20,000 nt of DNA. Origin: an uncultured virus (IMG/VR IMGVR_UViG_3300031646_000001). Taxonomy: Duplodnaviria > Heunggongvirae > Uroviricota > Caudoviricetes. Made by a program: the position numbers and the translations under genes. The notes below the pieces were generated by a model that was not told where the DNA came from, ran no database searches, and saw only the letters and a program-made list of their open reading frames with translations. Positions 1 through 19,495 of the stretch are shown piece after piece. The DNA lies in the IMG/VR virus record IMGVR_UViG_3300031646_000001; one strand, written 5' to 3'. Each line of letters opens with the position of its first letter. Positions within the stretch are counted from its first letter, which is position 1.

Positions 1-2
1 AT

Positions 3-1376
3 TATGATAACTGTAACTATTCTTACGATTGCTTAGAAGGATTCTGTCCTTCGTTTGCTACAATTAAAGGACGTAAACCAGCAGTAGAACTTGTTAAACC
101 AAAGTTCCCAAAGTTAGTTAATTATTTGCATCCAAAAATTTCAAAGCCGGAACGTTATAATATACTTGTTGCTGGTATCGGCGGCACTGGCGTTATTAGC
201 ACTAGTCAAATGATGTGTGTTGCCTCACATATCGATGGCATAAAAGTTATCTCAACAGATCAGACCGGGTTAGCACAAAAGTACGGAGCAGTAACATCTA
301 CAATTAGTTTAGGAGAGAAAGCATTTGGCAGAATGTTTCCAAAATCCTGTGATGTAGTAATAGGCATAGATCCACAAGTTACAGCAATGGAAGATTCAAT
401 GCGTTTTATTGGGCCGAATACAACAGTTATTCTTAATAAAAGTTTGGCGGCCAATGCTGAGATAATAAGAAATAGAGATTGGAAGTTAGAACTTGATGAT
501 ATTGTTAATGTATTAAAAACACAATGTAAGGAAGTAATTATTATAGATGCTTCTAATTACGCTAAAAAAATAACTGGTAATGCTGTAATGGTTAATATGT
601 TGATGCTTGGTTACGCATATGAAAAATGCTTGTTACCATATAGTGAAAAAGCAATGATAAAAGCAATTGAAGCAAACGGTGTCGCAGTAGATAGTAATAA
701 AAATGCGTGGATGATTGGCAGGCAATCTGCTACAGTCGAAGGCCATGGCGCAATTGAACGTTCTTTGAATCCAGAGGTAAAAGATACTTTTTATAGTGCA
801 ATGTATCATAGGCACGAATTGTTAAAGAAATATCAAGACGAAGAATATGCTAACATTTATTTAGACATAGTTACGAGAGCAAAGTTAAAAGAAGATTTCT
901 TAAATTCAGGCACTCACAGTCATTTTAATACAGAATTTTCCGAAGCAGTAATGCGTAATTTATACAAGTTAATGGCATACAAAGATGAATATGAAGTAGC
1001 CCGTATTTGGAGTGCAACACCTGAAATTAACAAATATAAAACAATTAAATTTCATATGTGCTTGCCTTGGAATCGAAAGTCACAAAAGAAAACAAGAATA
1101 GGCACGTGGGCAAAATATGTATTTGCTGTATTACAACATGGTAAAAAACTTAGAGGTAAAATATATGATCCTCTTGGATTTACATATGAACGAAGGCTGG
1201 AAAGAAAAATAAGAGATTGCTATATTTTGTTGGTTGAAGAGTGGATCAAAAATATTAAGACGGATAACTATAGTAATACAGAAAGACTAGCAAAACTCCC
1301 TGATAACATTAGAGGATATGGACATATTAAGTTAGCAAGTATTTGTAATTGTGAATTATTTAAGGACGTAATATGA
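3..1376 (+). CDS. ior: Indolepyruvate/arylpyruvate:ferredoxin oxidoreductase, fused alpha-beta type; 5'-truncated by the window edge
   Basis: The frame of the 126..1376 ORF is open back to base 3 and reads YDNCNYSYDCLEGFCPSFAT, matching the IOR 4Fe-4S motif CNxDxxCxxGFCPSF. Downstream motifs are GIGGTGV, DQTGLAQKYGAV, NMLMLGYA, KLMAYKDEYEVAR and PDNIRGYGHIK. Confidence 0.92.
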   Translation, partial: YDNCNYSYDCLEGFCPSFATIKGRKPAVELVKPKFPKLVNYLHPKISKPERYNILVAGIGGTGVISTSQMMCVASHIDGIKVISTDQTGLAQKYGAVTSTISLGEKAFGRMFPKSCDVVIGIDPQVTAMEDSMRFIGPNTTVILNKSLAANAEIIRNRDWKLELDDIVNVLKTQCKEVIIIDASNYAKKITGNAVMVNMLMLGYAYEKCLLPYSEKAMIKAIEANGVAVDSNKNAWMIGRQSATVEGHGAIERSLNPEVKDTFYSAMYHRHELLKKYQDEEYANIYLDIVTRAKLKEDFLNSGTHSHFNTEFSEAVMRNLYKLMAYKDEYEVARIWSATPEINKYKTIKFHMCLPWNRKSQKKTRIGTWAKYVFAVLQHGKKLRGKIYDPLGFTYERRLERKIRDCYILLVEEWIKNIKTDNYSNTERLAKLPDNIRGYGHIKLASICNCELFKDVI

Positions 1377-1789
1377 AGTTGCAAGGATTACATCATTTTG
1401 CGTGGAAGTGCCGAAACGCAGATGAAACGATACATTTTTATTCACATATCTTAAAACTTCCACACGTTCATACTATCGAAAAGGATCATGTTCCGAGTAC
1501 AGGAGCATATGCACCTTATAAACATATTTTCTTCCAAATGGAAGATGGCAGTAATATTGCTTTTTTTGATTTAGGTGATAATAAAGGAACCACAACAGAT
1601 TGTGATGATTGGGTAGTGCATTTTGCTTTTAATGTTAGTACAAAAGAAGATGTTGATAATTGGTGTCAATATTTAAAAAATAATAATATAGATGTTATAG
1701 GCCCTACTAATCATGATGATTGGATTTATAGCATTTATTTTTTCGATCCTAATGGATTGAGATTAGAGATTACAACACAGATAAACTAG
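1373..1789 (+). CDS. VOC (glyoxalase/extradiol dioxygenase-fold) family metalloprotein
   Basis: GLHHFAW, HFAF and SIYFFDPNGLRLE supply the His/His/Glu metal ligands. The ATGA start overlaps the ior stop. Confidence 0.9.
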   Translation: MKLQGLHHFAWKCRNADETIHFYSHILKLPHVHTIEKDHVPSTGAYAPYKHIFFQMEDGSNIAFFDLGDNKGTTTDCDDWVVHFAFNVSTKEDVDNWCQYLKNNNIDVIGPTNHDDWIYSIYFFDPNGLRLEITTQIN

Positions 1790-1805
1790 TATATGGAAAT
1801 ATTAA

Positions 1806-2564
1806 ATGACAGGCGGCCGAATAAAAGATTCAAGTAGTGTAAAAATAACACAGTTTTGTGATGGGAGCGCATATTTAATTCATGCGGAAAGAGTTCGAAA
1901 ATCACGCGGAGAAGAATTACCTGAGCAATTGAGAACAGATCCGTTAATGTACCAAGGCGTTAGCGATAAATTTTTAGAATATAACGAACCAATATATCCT
2001 TATAAAGAGGCATATGGTTTAGATTTTGAAGCAGAAGTTGGTGTAATTTTAGATGATACCCCAATGGGGGTATCTGTATCCGAAGCAACAGAATATATTA
2101 AATATGTTACAATTATTAATGACATTAGTTTGCGTAAATTAATACCTGCAGAATTAGCAAAAGGTTTTGGATTTTTACAAGGAAAACCTCATAGTTCCCT
2201 TGGATTAAAATGTATTCCTTTGCGTTTTTTAAATGGCACTTGGAAAGAACATGATGCTGTATTAGATGCAGACTTGGTTATTAATTATAATGGTGAGGAA
2301 TTTGGTAGAATTAATACTGCAAATATGGATTTTAATTTTGCACAACTAATTTCACATGCGGCAAAAACTCGTCCATTGTCTTCAGGAACATTGATAGGAA
2401 GCGGCACTGTAAGCTCTCATGATCTTTCTGACGGTTATGGTTGTTTATTAGAACGCAATGTAGTTGAAAGCATTAATGAATTTATGAATCCCGGCGATAC
2501 AATTAAAATGTATATAGTTGGATATGAAGATACATTAATTATAGATCAACAAGTTGCTTTCTAG
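1806..2564 (+). CDS. Fumarylacetoacetate hydrolase family protein lacking the usual N-terminal domain
   Basis: Motifs DGSAY, DPLMYQGxSD, LDFEAEV, NDISLR, ELAKGFGFLQGKP and GTLIGSGTVS. Confidence 0.9.
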   Translation: MTGGRIKDSSSVKITQFCDGSAYLIHAERVRKSRGEELPEQLRTDPLMYQGVSDKFLEYNEPIYPYKEAYGLDFEAEVGVILDDTPMGVSVSEATEYIKYVTIINDISLRKLIPAELAKGFGFLQGKPHSSLGLKCIPLRFLNGTWKEHDAVLDADLVINYNGEEFGRINTANMDFNFAQLISHAAKTRPLSSGTLIGSGTVSSHDLSDGYGCLLERNVVESINEFMNPGDTIKMYIVGYEDTLIIDQQVAF

Positions 2565-2565
2565 G

Positions 2566-2571
2566 TAAATA
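2566..2571 (+). promoter_or_regulatory. T4-type late promoter core (TAAATA) for the neck gene
   Basis: GGTAAATACT lies right after the FAH stop and upstream of the AGAGGG RBS. The same core recurs before other structural genes. Confidence 0.65.
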
Positions 2572-2592
2572 CTACTGTATAGAGGGACACAG

Positions 2593-3345
2593 ATGCCACG
2601 AAAACCTACTTTAGCACGAAATGAAGTTATTCAGCGTTTAACAACACGTCTCGGCGGCGGCATGGTTGATGTGGAATTAGATCCAGATCATTATAATGTT
2701 GCTATCGATAGAGCAATTGATCGCTATAGACAGCGATCATCTAATGCTACCGAAGAAAGCGGAATGTTTTTAACGTTGCAACCAGACATAACAGAGTATA
2801 TTCTACCAAATGAAGTATTAGAAGTACGTAAGTTATATAGACGTGCTATAGGCAGTGATTCTGGCACAGGCGCTGGAATAGATCCATTTGATATGGCATT
2901 TACAAATCTTTATATTTTGCAAGCAGGCCGCGTTGGCGGCGTCGCTTTATATGATGCATTTACTCAATACCAAGAAGTTGTAGGTAGAATTTTTGGTAGC
3001 GAAACAAATTTTATGTGGCATCCTAATACACACAAGTTAGAAATTATTCGAAGAGTAAAGAATGAAGAAAGCATTCTTTTACATGTTCATAACGAAAAAC
3101 CAGAGAATGAAGTATTAAGAGATCGTAGAAGTAGATTATGGTTAGAGGATTATGCTTTGGCAAATTGTAAAATTATGTTAGGAGAAGCAAGAGGAAAATA
3201 TCAATCCTTACCTGGTGCAGCCGGCGGCGTAGCCTTAAATGGCGAGACTTTAAAACAAGAAGGCCAAGCCGAGTTAGATCGGCTCGAAATGGAAATTACT
3301 CGTTACGGAGACGGCGGCGAACCACCTACTTTTATAATCGGTTAA
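2593..3345 (+). CDS. Neck/head completion protein (T4 gp13-like)
   Basis: RLGGGMVDVEL N-terminus; W..DYALA.CK..LGEARGKY..LPG..GGV.LNG; C-terminal PPxFIIG. It lies in a structural gene context. Confidence 0.8.
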   Translation: MPRKPTLARNEVIQRLTTRLGGGMVDVELDPDHYNVAIDRAIDRYRQRSSNATEESGMFLTLQPDITEYILPNEVLEVRKLYRRAIGSDSGTGAGIDPFDMAFTNLYILQAGRVGGVALYDAFTQYQEVVGRIFGSETNFMWHPNTHKLEIIRRVKNEESILLHVHNEKPENEVLRDRRSRLWLEDYALANCKIMLGEARGKYQSLPGAAGGVALNGETLKQEGQAELDRLEMEITRYGDGGEPPTFIIG

Positions 3346-3354
3346 GGAGTTCAA

Positions 3355-3624
3355 ATGTTACCAACCGATTCCCGGGCCGAATGGCCCTATATAAATAAAC
3401 CTCCCCAATATGGCACTATGGATGATCTGTCCACTGCTGATTTACTACAACTTGAAAAATTAATTTTAAATACATTAAAAGGAAATACAAATAGAGGACC
3501 AACGTATGGTGAGTTTTCTATTGTAGGACTTAATGGTTGGTTAAACGAGTGTCGTAGTATTTTACAAAAACGTAAGTATAAAAGTTCTTATAAAATATTA
3601 AAAAATATGGTGTTAACTGCTTGA
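3355..3624 (+). CDS. Hypothetical protein
   Basis: 89 aa ORF with an AAGGAG RBS that fills the gap between two genes. No motif recognised. Confidence 0.6.
   Translation: MLPTDSRAEWPYINKPPQYGTMDDLSTADLLQLEKLILNTLKGNTNRGPTYGEFSIVGLNGWLNECRSILQKRKYKSSYKILKNMVLTA
3390..3397 (+). promoter_or_regulatory. Possible intragenic late promoter TATAAATA
   Basis: Perfect T4 late consensus, but it lies inside a CDS. Confidence 0.35.
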
Positions 3625-3649
3625 CATAGACTAAGAATAATGTTATTAT
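3621..3649 (+). promoter_or_regulatory. Sigma70-type promoter for the dNMP kinase gene
   Basis: TTGACA (3621-3626), 17 bp spacer, TATTAT (3644-3649), with an extended -10 TG at 3641-3642. Confidence 0.75.
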
Positions 3650-3655
3650 AATATT

Positions 3656-4345
3656 ATGATTATTGGGTTATCTGGATTAGCAGGTAGTGGTAAAGATACA
3701 GTAGCATCTTTTATTGCTGAAAAGCACGAATTTGATAGAGTAAGTTTTGCCGGCGCCTTAAAAGATGCTACGGCCGCAGTTTTTTCCTGGCCGCGAGAAT
3801 TACTTGAAGGCGACACAAATGAAAGTAGAGATTGGCGAGAACAAGTAGACACTTATTGGAGTGCAAAGTTTGGTTATGCTGTTACTCCTCGGACAATTCT
3901 TCAACAGTTTGGTACAAATGTATGCAGAGAACATTTAAATGATAATATCTGGATTTATTGTGTAGAGAAAAAATTACAAGAAAATAACAAAAATAAATTA
4001 AATACAGTAATTACAGATGTGCGGTTTCCAAATGAAATAAAAATGATTAAACAGGCCGGCGGAAAGTGTTTTCATGTTAAACGTGGCCCAGAGCCTAAAT
4101 GGTGGCACTTGGCAAAGGCAGCAAATGGGTTAGAAGAAAATTTTAAAAATGATGTCATGTTCGAAGGAGATAGTGCTGTAATTTCTAATAAATTAGAGAT
4201 TGAATATAATCTCCATATTAGTGAGTGGGCCTGGGTCGGGTCTTCGTTTGATAGTGTAATAAATAATAATAGTACATTAGAGGCGTTAGATGAAAAAGTA
4301 ACCAATCTATTAGCCGTTTATGATTTCTTTGGCAAGGATATATAG
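3656..4345 (+). CDS. Deoxynucleoside monophosphate kinase (T4 gp1-like)
   Basis: N-terminal IIGLSGLAGSGKDT P-loop, SFAGALKD, TPRxILQxFGT, ITDVRFPNE and HISE. Confidence 0.92.
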   Translation: MIIGLSGLAGSGKDTVASFIAEKHEFDRVSFAGALKDATAAVFSWPRELLEGDTNESRDWREQVDTYWSAKFGYAVTPRTILQQFGTNVCREHLNDNIWIYCVEKKLQENNKNKLNTVITDVRFPNEIKMIKQAGGKCFHVKRGPEPKWWHLAKAANGLEENFKNDVMFEGDSAVISNKLEIEYNLHISEWAWVGSSFDSVINNNSTLEALDEKVTNLLAVYDFFGKDI

Positions 4346-4383
4346 TCAGCCAGTAATTAACGTAATATAGAATGATGAAAGGC

Positions 4384-4405
4384 AACCGGCTATATAGTCG
4401 GTTTT
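4384..4405 (+). terminator. Possible weak intrinsic terminator after the dNMP kinase gene
   Basis: Hairpin AACCGGCT-ATAT-AGTCGGTT (one G-U pair) followed by only a short T run. Confidence 0.4.
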
Positions 4406-4419
4406 ATAATGATTTCCAA

Positions 4420-4425
4420 TAAATA
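4420..4425 (+). promoter_or_regulatory. Late promoter core for the tail sheath gene
   Basis: AATAAATACT in the intergenic region upstream of the AAGGGG RBS. Confidence 0.7.
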
Positions 4426-4473
4426 CTGTTAACAACTTATATAAGTTATTATTAAGTTTAAGGGGAAAGATAA

Positions 4474-7173
4474 ATGCCAACATTAGTATCACCGGGCGTA
4501 TCGGTTAGCGTAATCGATGAGTCCTTTTACGGATCCGCTGGTTCCGGTACTATACCTTTAATTGTATTCGCAACGGCTGCCACTAAGGCACACCCAAGCG
4601 GCACAGGTACAGCAACTGGTACAACAGCGATCACAGATGAAGTAAAACTTATTACTTCACAACGAGAACTAATTCAAACATATGGCGATCCTTCCTTCAG
4701 GTCGGTTAGCGGAACACAAATTCATGCTGATAATCAGAATGAATATGGTCTATTAGCGGCACATAGTTACCTAGGAATTGCAAACAGAGCATATATGCTT
4801 CGTGCAAATCTTGATTTAGGTCAACTAGGTGCGGCTTCGACTGCTCCAGCCGGCGCACCTGTTAATGGTACACACTGGTTAGATTTAACAACATCTACGA
4901 TGGGCGTTTTTTCTTACAATGCGGGAACAGCAACTTGGGTTGCACAAACTGCATCTAAGTTAAACGCATCCACTGAGGTTGATGCTGGTACCGGTGCACC
5001 GTTAAATAGTATCGGCCTGGACGGAGCGTTCGCATGGGTTGCAACTGTAGGTGGCAATGCTCATAATAGAATCTGGAACAAAGTAAGTGGTGTTTGGTAT
5101 CACTTAGGTACAGATACTTGGAGAGCAGCCGCATCAAAAGACTTTCAGTTTGCCGCACATACTGCCATACCAACTGTAAAATCAACAGAAGGTGGCGGCG
5201 GTGCATTAGCAACCGGCGATGTATGGATTAAAACAACAGAATTCAATAACGGTACAAAAATGGTAGTGAAATCATATGATACATCTACCAAGAAATGGAC
5301 CACAATTACTTGCCCAGTATTAGCAGATACAACCGCGGCTTGGACAAATTTTACAACTCCAGTTGCAGGTAACTTGTTTGCTAAGTACAATCACGAGCAA
5401 GGAGCACACACTTTAAAAGTTGCATCACATTCAATTTTACGATTTAATGGTAGTGCAACACTAGCAGTTACAGGTAGTGCCAATCCAGCACCAACTGCAA
5501 CGCACACAATGGTAATTAATGGTACAACCGTTACGTACTCATCGAGTGCAGATTCAGCAGTTATTAGGACGGCAGCACTTGTTAATTCGGCGGCGATCAC
5601 AAATATTACCGCTAGTGTAGCAAGTAACAAACTAGTTATTACAAATACAGCAGGTAAGGACATTGTTCTTGCCGCGGGTTCAGGGACTTTGATTACTGAT
5701 TTAGGTCTAACCGCAGGAACAAGTTCAAACTGGGTTGCACTCAGTTATGAGCCAAATTTAAATACTCCAGTTGGTGCCACACCTAATGGTACATTATGGT
5801 ATGATAGCAGAATTACTACAGTAGATTTGCTTGAAACATATGATAATGCAGGTGTGACAACATGGAGAACATTTAGTGGTACATTAACACCATCGGCATC
5901 AAAACCAACAACACCTTCTGCAGGTGATATATGGATTGATACAACTGACACTGAAAATTATCCACTAATGTACAAATATAATGGTACAACATCTGTTTGG
6001 GATGTTATTGATAAGACAGACCAGACAACTAGCGAAGGTATTATATTTGGCGATTTCCGAGAAACTGCGTCTAGTTCATTGGAATCAGACGCACCAGTGC
6101 CAGCAACATATCCAGTTGGTATGTTGGGTTGGAACTTTATGGCTTCTGGCTATAATGTTAAGAAGTATAACTCAACTACTGCTAAATGGGTTAATGAATC
6201 CGGCACCAAAACAGCAGGTGATCCATATATGGGTCGTCATGCTACTAAGAAGGTTATTGTTAGAGCACTAGCGGCCGCACTTAACTCGAACCAGGATATT
6301 AGAGCAGAAACTAGATTCTTTAATCTAATTGCTTGCCCAGGTTTCCCAGAGTTAATTGACGAAATGAAAACCTTGCACATTGATCGTAAGGAACAAACAT
6401 TCGTTATTTGCGATGTTCCGTTTAGGCTTGCATCCTCTGGTACAGCAGTACAAAATTGGGCAACCAATGCGGCTAACGCGGCAGAGAATGGCGAAGACGC
6501 CCTACTAAGTTCAGGTCATGAACTAGGCGTATGGTATCCAGGCGGTTGCTTAGTATCAAATACTGATGGTACAAACGTTGTACAACCAGCATCTCATATT
6601 ATGTTGAGACAGATGGCATACAACGATCAAGTAGCGTATCAGTGGTTTGCTCCAGCAGGTTATCAACGAGGCCTTGTGCAGAATGCAACAAGTGTTGGTT
6701 ATATTAGTGCTGAACAAGAATATGTACCAGTAACACTAAACCAAGGTCAGCGTGATGTACTTTATACAAATAAGGTTAATCCAATTGCATTTATGCCTAA
6801 TAGAGGTTTAACTGTATTTGGTCAAAAGACACTTTATCCGTTAACAAGTGCATTAGATCGTATTAATGTATCTCGTTTGGTTGCTTTTTTGCGTAAGCAG
6901 TATGATGATATGGCACAGCCATTCTTATTCGAGCCAAATGATACTTACACTAGAGATCAAGTACTAGAAGTATTCAATGGTTTTATGGCAGATCTTATTA
7001 CAAAAAGAGCAGTATATGACTTCTTAGTTGTTTGTGATGATAGTAACAACACACCAACAAGGATTGATCGTAACGAGCTTTGGATTGATGTAGCGATTCA
7101 GCCAGTTAAAGCAATTGAGTTTATTTACATTCCTGTAAGAATTAAGAATACAGGAGAGTCATTAACTACATAA
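4474..7173 (+). CDS. Contractile tail sheath protein (T4 gp18-like), 899 aa
   Basis: LVSPGVSVSVIDES N-terminus; WFAPAGxxRG, LYxNKVNPI, FGQKT, DRINVSRL, FLFEPND, VVCDDSNNT and IQPVKAIEFIY. Confidence 0.96.
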   Translation: MPTLVSPGVSVSVIDESFYGSAGSGTIPLIVFATAATKAHPSGTGTATGTTAITDEVKLITSQRELIQTYGDPSFRSVSGTQIHADNQNEYGLLAAHSYLGIANRAYMLRANLDLGQLGAASTAPAGAPVNGTHWLDLTTSTMGVFSYNAGTATWVAQTASKLNASTEVDAGTGAPLNSIGLDGAFAWVATVGGNAHNRIWNKVSGVWYHLGTDTWRAAASKDFQFAAHTAIPTVKSTEGGGGALATGDVWIKTTEFNNGTKMVVKSYDTSTKKWTTITCPVLADTTAAWTNFTTPVAGNLFAKYNHEQGAHTLKVASHSILRFNGSATLAVTGSANPAPTATHTMVINGTTVTYSSSADSAVIRTAALVNSAAITNITASVASNKLVITNTAGKDIVLAAGSGTLITDLGLTAGTSSNWVALSYEPNLNTPVGATPNGTLWYDSRITTVDLLETYDNAGVTTWRTFSGTLTPSASKPTTPSAGDIWIDTTDTENYPLMYKYNGTTSVWDVIDKTDQTTSEGIIFGDFRETASSSLESDAPVPATYPVGMLGWNFMASGYNVKKYNSTTAKWVNESGTKTAGDPYMGRHATKKVIVRALAAALNSNQDIRAETRFFNLIACPGFPELIDEMKTLHIDRKEQTFVICDVPFRLASSGTAVQNWATNAANAAENGEDALLSSGHELGVWYPGGCLVSNTDGTNVVQPASHIMLRQMAYNDQVAYQWFAPAGYQRGLVQNATSVGYISAEQEYVPVTLNQGQRDVLYTNKVNPIAFMPNRGLTVFGQKTLYPLTSALDRINVSRLVAFLRKQYDDMAQPFLFEPNDTYTRDQVLEVFNGFMADLITKRAVYDFLVVCDDSNNTPTRIDRNELWIDVAIQPVKAIEFIYIPVRIKNTGESLTT

Positions 7174-7903: not shown

Positions 7904-9931
7904 ATGGCTACCTATATAGATCCGAAGGGTTATAAACCTAAAGATAGTGGTAAATCATTTGTTGTAGGCTCATCCGAAGCACCACGTGTTCACGGGTTTT
8001 CAGGAACGAAATGGCAAAAGTACGATTCGGCTCCTCGCTTTAAGAATCAATTTTTTGTACATTTTCAGTTTAGACCTCAAGTGACATATTCGGGTGGTTT
8101 TGAAACTTTGAAGGGCGTTTCGTATAAAGTTATAACGTTTGACGCCCCAAAGTTTGAAATCCAAAACGAAACAATGATGCAATATAATAAACGTCGCATT
8201 ATTCCTACACAGATACAATTTAGCCCGTGCAATATTACTTGGCATGATACTAAAGATGCTCAGGTCCAGCAATTTTGGCAATTTATCTATAACTTTTATT
8301 TTAAAGATGGCATGAAGAAAAAGCCTGGCCTATATGAAATGTCAGCATCTACAAAGATAGTTGAAGGCGCTGATGCAGGCGCAATTAAAACGCCGCTTCC
8401 ACATGAACAGTTTGGTTATCATTTAGGTAATAAAGAAGAATATCCGAACTTGTTTAGTGCAATCTCATTATATCTTGTTGCAAATTCAAAATATACTCGT
8501 ATAGATTTAGTAAATCCATATTTACAAGCATTTAATCATGATTCATTAAGTCAAGAAGATCCAAATACTCTTATGACTTTAACAGCAACCTTTCAACCCG
8601 AAACAGTTGTTTATGTTGCTGAAAACAAAACCCTTAATGAGGCCGACGATTATAATGGAACAGTACGAGCATTACTGGGCATGAGCGATAAAAATACGGC
8701 TATTTTTAATCATTATAGTTATGATGATACAATACCAGAAGTAAAAAATGGCCCAAAAAATATTGCTATTGTTCGTGATTCGATTGGCATGGGAACAAAC
8801 CCAACAGATGGAACACTTGAGAAGAAAATTGGTAGGCGGAGTGCAGGAATGGCAACAGATAGTGGAGATTTAGATACTATGTTCTCACCCACTTTAGTCT
8901 CTTCATCAAAGGATTATATGCAATGGTGGCACACAGGCGATGTTGAAGAAATGGAAGTAATACTTCAAAACATTGGTGTTACAATAGCCGTTGACGATTT
9001 TTCATTTTTAACGCAGACAATGACAAATCTGTTTAAAGGTACAAAACCTCCACAACATATTGAAAAACTAGCAAAGTCATTACAAACAGCAGTAGCAACC
9101 GACCCTGCAATTGCATCTAATCCAGCAACATTGGGCGGTAATGCCGGTGCCGTTGATACGACGCCGCCCTTCGCCTTAGAAAAAGCCAATGTTGCGGCCT
9201 TTGATGATTTAAATGCGGCGATGTCATCAGTTACTGATCCTGGCGTTGTGCCAAGTGAAAAAAGCACAGCCGCTTTAAAAACTGCTATTACTAATGTTAA
9301 GACAGCACCACCGGGTACAGTTGGCAAAGCACTTTCAACCGCTCTATCATATGGCCAATCGTCAATAGCCGTTAACGTATCAGGCGCACGGGCATCATTA
9401 ATGGGCGGAACAGTACCGTCTTTTAATGCTCCGGGACTGAGTAATATAGGATTTGGTTCGTTGTTGCCATCAGGGCTGTCTGGTTTAAATCAAACTTTGC
9501 AAACATTAAGTACAATAGCAAGTGTTGTAAATGTTGTTGCTGGCGGAAATTCTTTTGGTAAATTTTCAACTGGTGCAAGTACATTAGCAAATGTAGTACA
9601 AGGATTATCAACTGGTAATTTAAGACAGGCGGCATTATCGGTTGGTACGCAAACACATTTTTCACCAAATATAGGAAAGGCAATCACAGTTATTGATATG
9701 GTAACAGCAAGCCAAGCAACGTCTCAAAGATTGGTAGGTTCTAATTTCAATAATAGCGTAGTTTCAAGTTCACGAGGCGCCGCCAAGCCGTGGGTTAATC
9801 CGGATTCATTAGGTAATAAAACAGTTAATACAACATTGTTAACAACACAAGGAAAAGTTGCTCCCACATCATTTAATAAAACATTCGGCCCAGCCACATC
9901 AACGCAAAATAAAAATATTCATCCTTGGTAA
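7904..9931 (+). CDS. Tail-tube-fold paralog (gp54/gp48-like tube initiator) with a long Ser/Thr/Gly/Ala-rich C-terminal extension
   Basis: The N-terminal ~235 aa align by eye with the adjacent tube protein (PRFKNQFFVHF vs PKLKYKFRVVF; DAPKF..QYN vs DRPKL..SYN; ITWHD vs CAIRD). Confidence 0.6.
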   Translation: MATYIDPKGYKPKDSGKSFVVGSSEAPRVHGFSGTKWQKYDSAPRFKNQFFVHFQFRPQVTYSGGFETLKGVSYKVITFDAPKFEIQNETMMQYNKRRIIPTQIQFSPCNITWHDTKDAQVQQFWQFIYNFYFKDGMKKKPGLYEMSASTKIVEGADAGAIKTPLPHEQFGYHLGNKEEYPNLFSAISLYLVANSKYTRIDLVNPYLQAFNHDSLSQEDPNTLMTLTATFQPETVVYVAENKTLNEADDYNGTVRALLGMSDKNTAIFNHYSYDDTIPEVKNGPKNIAIVRDSIGMGTNPTDGTLEKKIGRRSAGMATDSGDLDTMFSPTLVSSSKDYMQWWHTGDVEEMEVILQNIGVTIAVDDFSFLTQTMTNLFKGTKPPQHIEKLAKSLQTAVATDPAIASNPATLGGNAGAVDTTPPFALEKANVAAFDDLNAAMSSVTDPGVVPSEKSTAALKTAITNVKTAPPGTVGKALSTALSYGQSSIAVNVSGARASLMGGTVPSFNAPGLSNIGFGSLLPSGLSGLNQTLQTLSTIASVVNVVAGGNSFGKFSTGASTLANVVQGLSTGNLRQAALSVGTQTHFSPNIGKAITVIDMVTASQATSQRLVGSNFNNSVVSSSRGAAKPWVNPDSLGNKTVNTTLLTTQGKVAPTSFNKTFGPATSTQNKNIHPW

Positions 9932-11942: not shown

Positions 11943-11958
11943 TTCCGGAGTGGATGAA

Positions 11959-13263
11959 ATGACAAATAATGGAACTAAGTATAATGCAGATTTATATCGT
12001 GCATTGGATATTATAAAGAAGTATAATATGCCTAATCAACCTAAAGCAGTTGATGAAGCACCATATGGATTGATAAATCGTGCAAAAGATGCTGTAAAGG
12101 GTGGCGTCGGTGCAATGGTGGGCAAAGGACAGATGTCTAAAGGTAGAATAGAAGCAGGTCGATTGTCGGATGATTTAAATAAACAATATTTACAATTTTT
12201 AGGACAACGCGGACATAAGAATCAAAAGACTCAAACAGTTCAGGATATTACAGATTTCTTTTCTAAATTTCAAGTTGATCCGGCTTCGTATTTTGCAAAA
12301 GCAGGAGTTGCCGCAGGCGAGCCAACCACAGTACTTACAAAAAAACAATCCGATAATGTTGTATTACAAATTGGTCAAGGAATGGCGTCAAGCGGAAAAG
12401 TCCCACCAGGCATGGGCGCCGCAGAAGATCCAGCCACGGCCGGTAAAGCCGCAACTGATACAGCACCAACATCAGCAGGCGCAAAGGCCGCAGGAGCGGC
12501 AGGAGCCGCAGGCGCAGCCGGCGCTTCATTTGGTAGAAAATCTGATGGTACAGCGGCCGCAACAGGCGGAGCAGGCGCAACAGGAGCCGCAGGCGGAGCA
12601 GGCGCAACAGGCGGAGCAGGCACAACAGGAGCCGCAGCCGAACCAGGCACAACAGGAGCCGCAGGCGAACCAGGAGCCGCAGGAGCGGCAGGAGCCGCAG
12701 GAGCGGCAGGAGCCGCAGGAGCGGCAGGAGCGGCAGGAGCCGCAGGCGAACCAGGAGCCGCAGGAGCCGCAGGAGCCGCAGGCGAACCAGGAGCCGCAGG
12801 CGAACCAGGAGCCGCAGGCGAACCAGGAGCCGCAGGCGAACCAGAAACGCCAGCCACGCCAGCCACGCCAGCACAAAAGTTTAATAATGGTGATGAAGTT
12901 AGTTATATAACTTCAAAAGGCAAACCACAAGATGGCATATTTGTACAATATTTAGATACTAAAGATGCCGAAGGCGACCCACAAGCACAGGTTCGACAAC
13001 CTAATCAAACAGATGCTCAAGCCTATGCAATTGATGCGGACAGTATCGGCCCTAAAGGTTCTCCACCAGTTAATAATGATGCGGCAAAAGCAAGTACACC
13101 AGCACAAAATAAGGTACTTGGCCAAGTTGAAAAATTAAATGACAGTGATCGCGTAAAATTAAAAAATACTATTGGTAGAATTTTAACAAGCCAAGCAATG
13201 AAAGCAAGTCCTGGACGATTAGCCGCCAGCAAGAAGCCAGCCGGGGAGGTATCAGCAGGATGA
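11959..13263 (+). CDS. Hypothetical protein with a collagen-like Gly-X-Y tract; start revised to ATG 11959
   Basis: GGAG at 11947-11950 is well spaced for ATG 11959. The protein contains GAA/GEP/GAT peptide triplets. Confidence 0.75.
   Translation: MTNNGTKYNADLYRALDIIKKYNMPNQPKAVDEAPYGLINRAKDAVKGGVGAMVGKGQMSKGRIEAGRLSDDLNKQYLQFLGQRGHKNQKTQTVQDITDFFSKFQVDPASYFAKAGVAAGEPTTVLTKKQSDNVVLQIGQGMASSGKVPPGMGAAEDPATAGKAATDTAPTSAGAKAAGAAGAAGAAGASFGRKSDGTAAATGGAGATGAAGGAGATGGAGTTGAAAEPGTTGAAGEPGAAGAAGAAGAAGAAGAAGAAGAAGEPGAAGAAGAAGEPGAAGEPGAAGEPGAAGEPETPATPATPAQKFNNGDEVSYITSKGKPQDGIFVQYLDTKDAEGDPQAQVRQPNQTDAQAYAIDADSIGPKGSPPVNNDAAKASTPAQNKVLGQVEKLNDSDRVKLKNTIGRILTSQAMKASPGRLAASKKPAGEVSAG
12565..12870 (+). 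repeat. 9 bp-unit coding tandem repeat (Gly-X-Y), then ETP-ATP-ATP
   Basis: About 31 units of ggagccgca, ggagcggca or ggcgaacca types from 12565 to 12843, followed by gccacgcca twice. Confidence 0.9.
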
Positions 13264-17598: not shown

Positions 17599-17630
17599 AA
17601 TTACAGTTGTATTTGTCAAGGAGGGTTCTT

Positions 17631-17891
17631 ATGCTTTTAAAGGAGTATCGTCTAACTACAATGTCAGTGTATTATTGGATGCCTGACTATAATCATATAC
17701 TGCAACAATTTATATGGCAGTACATGGATGTTCCACCTGCTTTTGCTCGATCATATCGTTTTTTAGATTTTTGGAAAGAAAATATAGAAGCAGTAATTGA
17801 AGAAGTAACAATCGCACATGGCGATCACAATCCATGGGATCTACAGGTTACTAATGATTACCGTGTTGTGGATTTTGAGAAGAAATTTTAA
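17631..17891 (+). CDS. usg: Usg-family protein; start revised to ATG 17631
   Basis: AAGGAGG RBS. The pattern Y.LTT..V.Y.MPD...ILQ.FIWQ..D..P.F.....FLDFW...IE..I..V.IAH matches the Usg family. Confidence 0.82.
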   Translation: MLLKEYRLTTMSVYYWMPDYNHILQQFIWQYMDVPPAFARSYRFLDFWKENIEAVIEEVTIAHGDHNPWDLQVTNDYRVVDFEKKF

Positions 17892-17899
17892 AGGATAAC

Positions 17900-19495
17900 A
17901 TGCCACAAGGTACAGACAGTAAATTAATTAAATCTGCTCATAAGTCGATAAAGTATACTAAAGAAGAAATAACACATTTAAAAGAATGTATGGACAAGAC
18001 AACGGGTCCTTTATACTTTATGAGTAATTTTATGTATATACAGCATCCGGTTCGCGGAAGGCTATTATTTGACCCATATGATTATCAGGTAGAATTGGTA
18101 GACAATTATCATGAGAATAGATTTAGTATTAATATGTGTGGACGACAGATGGGTAAAACTACTGTTGCCGCAGGCTATTTGTTGTGGTATGCAATGTTCA
18201 TTCCAGACAGTACAATATTAATTGCCGCACACAAATATCAAGGTTCTGCTGAAATTATGCAACGTGTGCGTTATGCTTATGAGAGCGTACCGGATTTTAT
18301 TCGGCCTGGTGTGACTAACTACAATAGAAATAGTATAGATTTTGATAATGGGTCGAGAATACAATCATCAACAACTACAGATAATACTGGACGCGGTATG
18401 TCCTTGTCACTTATTTACTGTGACGAGTTTGCATTTGTGCAACCAAGAGTAGCACAAGAGTTCTGGACTTCCTTATCTCCAACATTAGCAACAGGTGGTA
18501 AATGTATTATTACATCTACACCTAATAGTGATGATGATCAATTTGCATCAATTTGGCGAGAAGCAAATAATACAATTGATGAACACGGCGACCATCAAAA
18601 ATTAGGACGCAATGGATTCTCAGGTTTTAAAGTTACTTGGCAAGAGCACCCAGACCGTGATGACGAATGGGCAAAGGGGGAAAGATCCCGCGTTGGTGAA
18701 GAACGTTTTAGACGAGAGCATTTGTGTGAGTTTATTATTTACGATGAAACATTAATTGATCCATTAAAGTTAGTTGGTTTAAAAGGAAGAGAACCAGTAT
18801 TGAGAACTGGAGAAGTGCGTTGGTTTAAGAAACCGACGAAAGGCGGTATTTATCTTGTTGGCTTAGATCCAAGTTTGGGCACAGGCGGAAATTCAGCGGC
18901 CATTGAAGTTTATGATGGTACAACAATGGAGCAGATTGCGGAATGGCAACATAATAAGTCTCCAGTAAAACGCCAATTAAAAATTATGCAAGACATTTTA
19001 ATGTATATTGCAAAAGAAACAGATTATAAAGAAGGTACACATTTAGAAACAGAAATTTATTGGAGTGTAGAAAACAACACACTCGGTGAAGCCGCATTAA
19101 CTGTTATTGAATATACTGGGGAAGAAAATTTTCCTGGACAAATGATAAGTCAACCAAAAGCAGGAAGCGCCACCCGACGATTTAGAAAAGGCTTTACTAC
19201 TACAGCAAAGACAAAAATAGCAATGTGTTCGATGCTTAAAAATTTAGTAGAGTCTAATAAAATAAAAATATATAGTAATAATTTAGTAAGAGAATTAAAG
19301 AATTTTGTAGCACACGGATTAAAATTTCAGGCAAAATTGGGGGAATCTGATGATTTAGTAGCGGCAACGTTATTGGTACTTCGAATTAGTCATCATTTAG
19401 CAAAATATGACGACAGAATTCACGAAAGAATGGCTCAAAACGCCGCTGATGACGATACTGGCTTCGAACTGCCCCTCCCATTAGGTCTAATTTAA
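17900..19495 (+). CDS. Terminase large subunit (T4 gp17-like)
   Basis: YDYQ adenine-binding motif, GRQMGKTT Walker A, LIYCDEFAF Walker B, ITSTPN coupling motif, and nuclease motifs GLDPSLG and DDLV. Confidence 0.97.
   Translation: MPQGTDSKLIKSAHKSIKYTKEEITHLKECMDKTTGPLYFMSNFMYIQHPVRGRLLFDPYDYQVELVDNYHENRFSINMCGRQMGKTTVAAGYLLWYAMFIPDSTILIAAHKYQGSAEIMQRVRYAYESVPDFIRPGVTNYNRNSIDFDNGSRIQSSTTTDNTGRGMSLSLIYCDEFAFVQPRVAQEFWTSLSPTLATGGKCIITSTPNSDDDQFASIWREANNTIDEHGDHQKLGRNGFSGFKVTWQEHPDRDDEWAKGERSRVGEERFRREHLCEFIIYDETLIDPLKLVGLKGREPVLRTGEVRWFKKPTKGGIYLVGLDPSLGTGGNSAAIEVYDGTTMEQIAEWQHNKSPVKRQLKIMQDILMYIAKETDYKEGTHLETEIYWSVENNTLGEAALTVIEYTGEENFPGQMISQPKAGSATRRFRKGFTTTAKTKIAMCSMLKNLVESNKIKIYSNNLVRELKNFVAHGLKFQAKLGESDDLVAATLLVLRISHHLAKYDDRIHERMAQNAADDDTGFELPLPLGLI

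Follow-up and report, generated by a model that had tools for sequence, protein, structure and literature searches.

Marine and jumbo phages carry auxiliary metabolic genes, and phage metabolic genes reveal the host bottlenecks that limit virus production. Glutamine synthetase, for example, has been described in large aquatic phages (in passages of PMC12619734). In Pseudomonas putida, the canonical homogentisate pathway consists of the cupin dioxygenase HmgA, the isomerase HmgC and the fumarylacetoacetase HmgB (in passages of PMC13572102, 2026). Part of the same source, citing Seo et al. 2025 (Proteins 93:2150), states that an Acinetobacter gene of the VOC family has been shown to be a homogentisate 1,2-dioxygenase. 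A third described enzyme, EdcC of Sphingomonas sp. KC8, belongs to the indolepyruvate ferredoxin oxidoreductase (IOR) family and decarboxylates the product of an extradiol-dioxygenase ring cleavage, a 2-oxoacid, to a CoA ester (in passages of PMC8913865). The present analysis concerns a 20,000-nucleotide stretch of DNA (the window), bases 20543-40542 of the 72,806-bp record IMGVR_UViG_3300031646_000001 of an uncultured virus, in which genes for an IOR-family oxidoreductase, a VOC-family protein and an FAH-family hydrolase stand beside phage neck and tail genes.

The record is a fragment of an uncultured marine jumbo myovirus, and the three-gene cassette lies where the neck genes diverge, with gp15 and gp14 running leftward and gp13, sheath and tube running rightward. 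The three genes have clear family identities and intact motifs, lie within the phage genome, recur in related phages and are separable there. The best reading of the region is a variable metabolic-gene hot spot that holds two separable amino-acid catabolic modules. That this neck island combines an IOR module with a VOC-FAH homogentisate pair is the preferred reading, to which we give a probability of about 0.6.

The cassette in its phage genome

The record is a linear metagenomic fragment that CheckV places at about 20% of a complete genome. Eighty open reading frames (ORFs) were called on it; the Pfam scan covered all 80, and the PHROG scan covered 33, those of the window and of the flank upstream of it. 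Phage genes extend over 18.5 kb upstream and about 50 kb downstream of the cassette. Upstream, Pfam and PHROG matches include a gp21-type prohead protease, the gp23 major capsid protein and fibre-like proteins, together with a 2OG-Fe(II) oxygenase and a NUDIX hydrolase; gp15 (PF16724) and a gp14-like virion protein follow on the minus strand. Between the gp14-like gene and IOR, the plus strand encodes a PHROG 11903 protein and then a 97-aa ORF. Downstream, the gp13-like adaptor is followed by a dNMP kinase, an 899-aa sheath, the tube, a head-closure protein, a collagen-like fibre, a Usg-like protein and TerL, beyond which lie UvsX-like, DnaB-like, helicase and CCA-adding enzyme genes. In its capsid protein the virus shares 71% identity with the Pseudomonas jumbo phage PA5oct and 65-67% with other jumbo myoviruses. 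Because phage genes occupy both flanks and the capsid is PA5oct-like, the cassette is placed inside a jumbo-phage genome. The part of the contig upstream of the cassette, where the earlier note on this DNA suggested looking for phage genes, thus holds capsid, protease and gp15/gp14 genes and not continuous cellular housekeeping genes. The cassette has a GC content of 32-35%, close to the 33-53% along the rest of the window; among the IOR matches listed, 80 mostly cellular loci have a median of 63%.

The three host-type enzyme genes are packed on one strand as the earlier note had described, with a 4-bp overlap (ATGA) between IOR and VOC and a gap of 16 nt between VOC and FAH, and both their coordinates and their family matches (Table 1) agree with that description. 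The window edge cuts the IOR gene, whose start lies 1,977 nt upstream of the window. The gp13-like gene does follow the cassette, but the proposal of a phage late promoter core 1 bp after the last stop codon holds only in part. The hexamer TAAATA is present there, whereas the motif after the FAH stop is GGTAAATA and not the T4 late-promoter core TATAAATA; the window has 3 exact copies of TATAAATA, where 2.89 are expected. Of the 80 contig ORFs, 17 have TAAATA no more than 45 nt upstream, among them the gp13-like gene (at -27), over a background of 0.70 per kb per strand, and because this hexamer is so strongly enriched upstream of the contig's genes a late-promoter-like signal ahead of the gp13-like gene is plausible. 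A scan for sigma-70 promoters is not enriched (22 sites against 26.9 ± 5.7 in shuffles). As first noted, no terminator-like site is seen at the junction of cassette and gp13; the scan as a whole gave 6 such sites against 3.4 ± 1.8, with no clear signal. Likewise, no integrase is matched by Pfam in the 80 ORFs or by PHROG in the 33 ORFs scanned.

The join between phage and cassette recurs in other data. Eight DNA runs from marine or seawater samples, dated 2017-2025, contain 0.97-1.00 of the sampled words of a 5-kb stretch from the 3' end of IOR to the start of the sheath gene, and part of this stretch is present in RNA libraries. Contigs from 4 of the 21 listed runs were aligned to this stretch. 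Those of runs X1 and X5 cover it whole with no difference and are possibly the source of the record. A 10,667-bp contig of run X8 carries 2 differences and covers window positions 2016-5000, bridging FAH into gp13, and contigs of the RNA library X11 cover 1289-2528 (the IOR end, VOC and FAH) and 2508-3032 (FAH into gp13). The depth of the RNA-library contigs is about 6 over the cassette and 98.9 over the sheath gene, values that give no basis for ranking expression. No joints or loose ends are seen at the junction in the aligned contigs of the 4 runs. A chimeric join near position 2565, which would have marked a misassembly, was looked for; no break was seen, and the X8 and X11 contigs cross the junction.

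Four further IMG/VR contigs (L006-L009) have the order NUDIX, gp15, gp14, PHROG 11903 and IOR, as in the window record, with structural proteins 70-78% identical and IOR 55-57% identical to those of the record. On L007, IOR is followed by VOC (76%) and the start of FAH (62%), inside which the contig ends, so that the search of viral databases for the same cassette found the IOR-VOC-FAH order again. On L008, gp13 (78% identical) comes directly after IOR. Since independent marine assemblies bridge the gp13 join and these four related viral contigs keep IOR at the neck position, the cassette is truly phage-borne and is neither a host flank nor a chimera, in agreement with the original proposal. 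The record's nature as a linear metagenomic fragment, and the possibility that some matching runs are its own source, would favour a host flank, a misassembly or a set of decaying, functionless passenger genes. Such an origin is nevertheless highly improbable given the phage genes on both sides, the X8 assembly that bridges the junction with 2 differences, the synteny in four more viral contigs, a 92%-identical IOR on a separate 78-kb contig, the intact frames, the invariant cofactor motifs and a GC content that matches the phage. Host-type genes within a genuine phage genome, and not an assembly artefact, are what defines phage auxiliary metabolic genes, and the cassette is of this kind.

The VOC and FAH-family proteins

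The VOC and FAH-family proteins look like enzymes for the ring opening and hydrolysis of homogentisate in the lower tyrosine pathway, because VOC is homologous to a solved homogentisate 1,2-dioxygenase and FAH is of the type of PDB 3LZK. The best PDB match of VOC is 9U42 (E 3.5e-29, 38% identity), an entry whose title names homogentisate 1,2-dioxygenase; the next PDB match has an E value of 2.8e-7. By profile the match has an E value of 7.5e-47, and the AlphaFold model of VOC (pLDDT 94.6) matches 9U42 with a TMq of 0.90 and an rmsd of 2.0. A VOC gene near-identical to 9U42 is found in an Acinetobacter cluster of FAH, maiA, VOC, iclR and hpd. Residues H7, H8, H51, H83, H114 and E132, which do not vary among the 17 sequences aligned and are the same in 9U42, are candidate metal residues. 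At 138 aa, against 182 aa for 9U42, the phage protein is without the roughly 45 C-terminal residues that form a tail in 9U42 and in all 10 long cellular VOC sequences aligned (170-190 aa).

Cellular homologues of VOC are 166-211 aa long and 46-58% identical to it. HPPD is encoded in all five of the cellular genomes with VOC homologues that were considered, whereas the canonical cupin hmgA is encoded in only two, and because of this difference the genomes fit a replacement of cupin HmgA by the VOC type in cells. Across phage lineages whose gp15 proteins are only 40-73% identical, VOC identity is 74-76%, a level that suggests either strong constraint or exchange between phages. One VOC homologue (67% identity) carries the label of a Marinimicrobia metagenome-assembled genome (MAG) and may be a mis-binned phage contig. 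In 7 of 80 cellular VOC loci, all from Burkholderiales (L029, L026, L032, L037, L049, L092 and L103), an operon encodes an FAD-dependent monooxygenase, a VOC protein of the 9U42 family and a canonical fumarylacetoacetase. This operon may represent a hydroxylase-fed homogentisate route with a VOC-type dioxygenase.

The FAH-family protein matches PDB 3LZK, a Sinorhizobium meliloti FAH-family structural-genomics entry named 'probably aromatic amino acid degradation protein', with an E value of 1e-54 over chain residues 98-317 only (Foldseek TMq 0.86, 42% identity). The match begins at residue 98 of 3LZK, and the phage protein is without the N-terminal PF18288 domain. This domain is missing from the short FAH-family forms (about 250 aa) and is carried by the cellular forms (about 327 aa). 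Residues D19, H26, E75, E77, D106, R110 and K127 are invariant in 19 of 19 sequences, as is the acidic motif DFEAE...ND; we take these residues to be equivalent to the catalytic residues of mammalian fumarylacetoacetase. Judged by these alignments, the phage protein is the catalytic core of the 3LZK type. It is not a canonical fumarylacetoacetase, as it scores 25.4 bits against TIGR01266, whose cut-off is 375.3, and matches PF01557 alone, with no PF09298. For this reason the release of fumarate, which the earlier note attributed to the family, can only be inferred here. One FAH homologue (55%) bears an archaeal MAG label and may be a mis-binned phage contig.

The identity of 38% between VOC and the characterised dioxygenase leaves room for other substrates of the VOC-FAH pair, such as gentisate or another hydroquinone or catechol, or a non-aromatic beta-diketo acid, or for a VOC that acts in detoxification as a thiol transferase or glyoxalase. 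The next structural neighbours of VOC are glyoxalase I, FosB and FosX, and those of the FAH-family protein include diketo-deoxyrhamnonate hydrolase, fumarylpyruvate hydrolase and FAHD1; moreover, a saccharopine-dehydrogenase-like gene lies between VOC and FAH in three related contigs (L022-L024). However, 22 orders of magnitude separate 9U42 from the next PDB match, VOC scores far under the cut-offs of all Fos and glyoxalase equivalogs, and cellular VOC homologues are found in the Acinetobacter hmg cluster and in the operons of flavin monooxygenase, VOC and canonical FAH. A substrate other than homogentisate is thus unlikely.

The fused oxidoreductase

The full-length IOR protein matches NCBIfam NF009589 ('indolepyruvate ferredoxin oxidoreductase family protein') with 1142.4 bits, over a cut-off of 816, along residues 2-1109 of 1117. 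It contains a POR gamma domain (PF01558, 1.2e-21) followed by DUF6537 (PF20169, 2.1e-33), and the part encoded in the window matches the same two domains (4.4e-22 and 3.7e-34, respectively). The thiamine-pyrophosphate motif GDG...N (G496, D497, G498 and N525) is identical in 21 of 21 aligned sequences, 8 from the phage clade and 13 cellular. The same 21 sequences share 11 cysteines (431, 434, 454, 604, 631, 634, 637, 643, 664, 670 and 675), which presumably belong to particular iron-sulfur clusters. The protein scores below the cut-offs of the two-subunit equivalogs (131.9 against 650.9 for IorA, TIGR03336; 83.5 against 205.8 for IorB, TIGR03334), and on these scores it is related to, but no member of, the characterised arylpyruvate family IorA/IorB. 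The arylpyruvates that the earlier note named as IOR substrates are thus only putative ones for this enzyme. A search by sequence matched no solved structure.

Among 5.8 billion proteins, the nearest cellular ones share about 40-42% identity with IOR. Closer relatives are the proteins P0001-P0017, at 46-92% identity to the window's IOR, of which P0003-P0017 share 70-100% identity with IORs of viral contigs. In a FastTree phylogeny, the window's IOR, P0001-16, L010 and L011 form one clade with an SH-like support of 100, apart from 35 other sequences (34 cellular ones and L012, a 49.5%-GC IMG/VR contig). The phylogeny comes from FastTree only, with a warning of long branches and skewed composition, and the phage clade is monophyletic only provisionally. 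Relatives in the viral contig collection came to light in a scan based on an alignment, and not in one with the single IOR protein. The scan of metagenomes gave, among the matches listed, only cellular-type homologues of 36-46% identity, which were used as a control for cellular gene context; the 80 mostly cellular loci come from these matches, and immediate neighbours were read in 22 of them.

An Lrp/AsnC regulator adjoins the cellular IOR gene in 6 of these 22 loci and a Glu/Leu/Phe/Val dehydrogenase in 3. On an Acinetobacter chromosome, the IOR homologue adjoins a leucine/isovalerate catabolic cluster. In the phage relatives L006, L007 and L009, a PRK07036-type class-III aminotransferase gene overlaps the start of IOR (the L007 protein scores 713 bits against a cut-off of 618). 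Because of these neighbours, and of the reaction of EdcC, IOR points to the oxidation of 2-oxoacids derived from amino acids. EdcC is, we assume, a single-polypeptide form.

The IOR enzyme class is reversible, and the enzyme could be biosynthetic, reductively carboxylating an acyl-CoA to a 2-oxoacid that an aminotransferase would convert to an amino acid for phage protein synthesis. The aminotransferase directly upstream of IOR in relatives would suit this role, as would the genes of nitrogen assimilation (a GlnII-like synthetase or an ammonium transporter) in the same island. But no low-potential electron donor is seen on the contig, the neighbouring VOC-FAH pair would be catabolic, and cellular homologues of IOR stand beside catabolic Leu/Phe-type dehydrogenases and, in Acinetobacter, the leucine/isovalerate catabolic cluster. 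A biosynthetic direction is quite improbable, and the catabolic direction is the one retained in the preferred reading.

The neck-gene island and its relation to known systems

Apart from the window, 9 viral contigs carry VOC and FAH next to each other or with one gene in between. The most complete relative, G001 (322,647 bp, about 90% complete, capsid 71% identical), has VOC, FAH and an aminotransferase but no IOR, and G002 and G003 have IOR without VOC on the fragments available. The three contigs L022-L024 share the order NUDIX, gp15, gp14, a GlnII-like glutamine synthetase or an ammonium transporter, a 93-aa ORF, VOC, the saccharopine-dehydrogenase-like gene and FAH. In cells, an FAH-family gene lies within 3 kb of VOC in 17 of 80 VOC loci; 10 of these genes are of the 3LZK type (8 within 500 bp of VOC), and 7 are in the monooxygenase-VOC-canonical FAH operons. 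No IOR lies within 8 kb of VOC in the 80 cellular VOC loci. Within 6 kb of IOR, among the matches listed, VOC is found at 1, and FAH and aminotransferase at none, of the 80 mostly cellular loci. Because IOR and VOC-FAH occur apart in phages and are rarely neighbours in cells, the island is a mosaic of two separable modules and not a transferred operon.

This pattern bears on whether IOR, VOC and FAH form one coherent pathway that acts in sequence on one class of aromatic substrates. Such a pathway could follow the scheme of the earlier note or a meta-cleavage-type route, in which ring opening by the VOC dioxygenase yields a 2-oxoacid that the IOR-family enzyme converts to a CoA ester by decarboxylation. 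The tight packing of the three genes on one strand, the recurrence of their order in L007 and the precedent of EdcC, an IOR-family enzyme that acts on an extradiol ring-cleavage product (in passages of PMC8913865), speak for a single pathway. It is rather unlikely in view of G001, G002 and G003, of L008 with its passage from IOR directly to gp13, and of the cellular loci in which the genes so seldom meet. The idea of one multi-step module is accordingly not supported. Its link to aromatic amino acids is well supported for VOC-FAH as a homogentisate-type pair, with a 9U42 homologue in the phage and cellular homologues beside FAH-family, HPPD and isomerase genes, but finds no support as a single pathway with IOR.

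Relatives also carry other genes at or near the same place (Table 1), so far as contigs L018, L023 and L024 go, and the neck-gene island of related jumbo phages appears to be a hot spot where genes of nitrogen and amino-acid metabolism gather. The 97-aa ORF that opens the island (contig 18210-18503, plus strand, just upstream of the window) has only a weak match to DUF6356 (3.1e-4, below cut-off); in L022-L024 an ORF 62-67% identical to it likewise stands at the head of the island, though different genes come next.

Table 1. Features of the cassette, its right-hand junction and the neck-gene islands of related contigs (window positions, unless a contig is named)
Feature	Position	Strand	Remarks
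IOR (window part)	1..1376; ORF 3-1376	+	Whole gene contig 18565-21918, 1,117 aa; NF009589, POR, DUF6537
VOC	1373..1789	+	138 aa; PF00903 6e-11; PDB 9U42 E 3.5e-29
FAH-family hydrolase	1806..2564	+	252 aa; PF01557 6.2e-29; PDB 3LZK E 1e-54
TAAATA hexamer	2566..2571	+	1 nt past FAH stop, 27 nt before gp13-like start; possible late-promoter core
gp13-like head-tail adaptor	2593..3345	+	PHROG 211 (head-tail adaptor Ad2), 1.5e-31; right-hand island boundary
Ammonium transporter	L023:4721-5935	-	PF00909, 2.5e-95; at or near the same neck-gene island
GlnII-like glutamine synthetase	L024:4230-5186	-	Below its cut-off; at or near the same neck-gene island
Saccharopine-dehydrogenase-like protein	L024:6872-7921	+	At or near the same neck-gene island
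Coproporphyrinogen III oxidase	L024:10918-11850	+	2.2e-109; at or near the same neck-gene island
PRK07036-type aminotransferase	L018:8738-10135	+	At or near the same neck-gene island

Some other genes of the record merit description. A 675-aa protein (window 7904-9931, plus strand) is encoded right after the tail tube gene; its tube homology is confined to the first 250 residues or so (PHROGs 13438 and 4542), and it may be a tube paralogue with a long extension. The collagen-repeat fibre-like protein (11950-13263, plus strand; PF01391, 2.5e-10) lies where the GC content rises to 50-53%, from 33-44% in its surroundings. The Usg-like protein (17607-17891, plus strand; PF06233, 2.3e-21) adjoins the large terminase gene on the 5' side and has no PHROG match. 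Past the right end of the window, a 276-aa core resembling class-II aminoacyl-tRNA synthetases is encoded (contig 47669-48499, plus strand; PF00152, 1.4e-11), and a tRNA-Asn(GTT) gene begins 10 nt to its 3' side (contig 48509-48597, plus strand). For a 59%-identical relative of this core, the closest NCBIfam names are Asn/Asp-tRNA ligases, far under their cut-offs. The core is also found in L022-L024 and may be an asparagine-synthetase-like paralogue.

The substrates, direction and benefit of the two modules are read from homology. In the first module, IOR would convert a 2-oxoacid from the deamination or transamination of an amino acid to an acyl-CoA, CO2 and a reduced low-potential carrier. 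In the second, VOC would open the homogentisate ring and the FAH-family core would hydrolyse the product to acetoacetate and a C4 diacid, relying on the host for HPPD and perhaps for an isomerase. The net effect during infection would likely be a faster turnover of amino acids into acyl-CoA, tricarboxylic acid (TCA) cycle carbon and reductant, with amino nitrogen saved; relatives have in addition an omega-aminotransferase, a glutamine synthetase-like gene and an ammonium transporter at the same spot. In a bolder version, a family of abundant marine jumbo phages would carry a minimal, isomerase-free homogentisate shunt, made of the tail-less VOC and the FAH core without its N-terminal domain, beside an oxygen-tolerant IOR rich in iron-sulfur clusters. 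With the aminotransferase, glutamine synthetase and ammonium-transporter genes, the island would reprogramme the infected cell so that amino acids lose their nitrogen and their carbon skeletons are burnt; this version is speculative and on balance unlikely.

Several points weigh against the preferred reading of an IOR module and a homogentisate pair. The substrates are all assigned by homology to studied or solved proteins, the nearest of which are 37-42% identical, and the activity or specificity of the phage VOC and FAH may differ from that of their cellular relatives because VOC is without the C-terminal tail and FAH without the N-terminal domain. An FAH-family gene within 3 kb is missing from 63 of the 80 cellular VOC loci. 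The genes hppD and maiA, which the earlier note proposed to seek, were searched for by profile, and neither HPPD nor maleylacetoacetate isomerase (MaiA) was found in 5 phage records, one about 90% complete. Because the other four are fragments, this negative shows little, yet with neither enzyme found the pathway would be incomplete without the host. No ferredoxin or flavodoxin family is seen by Pfam among the contig's 80 ORFs. Lastly, the contigs of RNA library X11 could derive from carried-over DNA.

The gene set was found in no isolated phage, and its genes join a known class, that of phage auxiliary metabolic genes. The author of the earlier note did not know IOR as a standard phage auxiliary gene, and this is borne out, as no true phage with any of the three genes occurs among 50,697 phage records. 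The only records named as phage that hold IOR or VOC homologues, those of 'Acinetobacter phage MD-2021a' (L005 and L015), were rejected as evidence from phages; they represent a bacterial chromosome with liu, fad, pca and hmg genes and show no phage genes in the 27 kb and 12 kb viewed. Bacterial contigs filed as phage in this way can yield false 'phage' matches for metabolic genes. In a literature search that did not extend to supplementary virome gene tables, none of the IOR-family, VOC-type homogentisate dioxygenase and FAH-family genes was found described as a phage metabolic gene, and the available passages of the 'moraphage' paper (PMC12619734) do not mention them. One mention of 'indolepyruvate' in a virome paper was rejected, as it refers to indolepyruvate decarboxylase in a read-count table.

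An enzyme of 1,117 aa that needs thiamine pyrophosphate and several iron-sulfur clusters is costly for a virus in iron-poor seawater, and several phage lineages have retained IOR intact. The breakdown of tyrosine and homogentisate would gain its first viral link with the VOC-FAH pair, and the phage VOC extends a dioxygenase type that was recognised only in 2025. As cut-down forms, the phage enzymes offer natural minimal versions for biochemistry. The phage is widespread, since the exact 5-kb stretch recurs in seawater data sets of 2017-2025 and also in RNA libraries, and its genes are open to study with field data. If true, an isomerase-free shunt and an IOR island would form a viral route for the turnover of tyrosine and other amino acids in the ocean that lies outside current gene catalogues.

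Compared with the systems described to date, the phage IOR resembles the fused family NF009589/PRK13030 of Pseudomonadota in its full-length match, its domain order (thiamine-pyrophosphate, POR gamma, DUF6537) and its invariant motifs. It differs from cellular NF009589 members in being only 37-42% identical to them, about 45 aa shorter with three small deletions, encoded by a phage and placed in its own clade with sequences from viral contigs. The phage VOC has its best sequence and fold match in the Acinetobacter 9U42 enzyme, with which it shares the six His/Glu residues and a position beside an FAH-family gene, but it has 138 aa in place of 182 and no tail. The partners of the Acinetobacter VOC are a canonical fumarylacetoacetase and an isomerase, whereas that of the phage VOC is a 3LZK-type core with no isomerase. 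The phage FAH is like 3LZK over the catalytic domain (42% identity, TMq 0.86) and unlike it in starting at about residue 98, with no PF18288. In relation to the P. putida pathway, VOC-FAH would perform the same chemistry, homogentisate ring opening followed by C-C hydrolysis, through enzymes that are both non-orthologous or divergent, with a VOC protein in place of the cupin and a short 3LZK-type protein in place of a hydrolase of about 430 aa, and with no isomerase or HPPD found. As a whole, the cassette is like the auxiliary metabolic genes of marine and jumbo phages: its genes are host-derived, stand among phage genes, have a phage-like composition and occupy a variable island.

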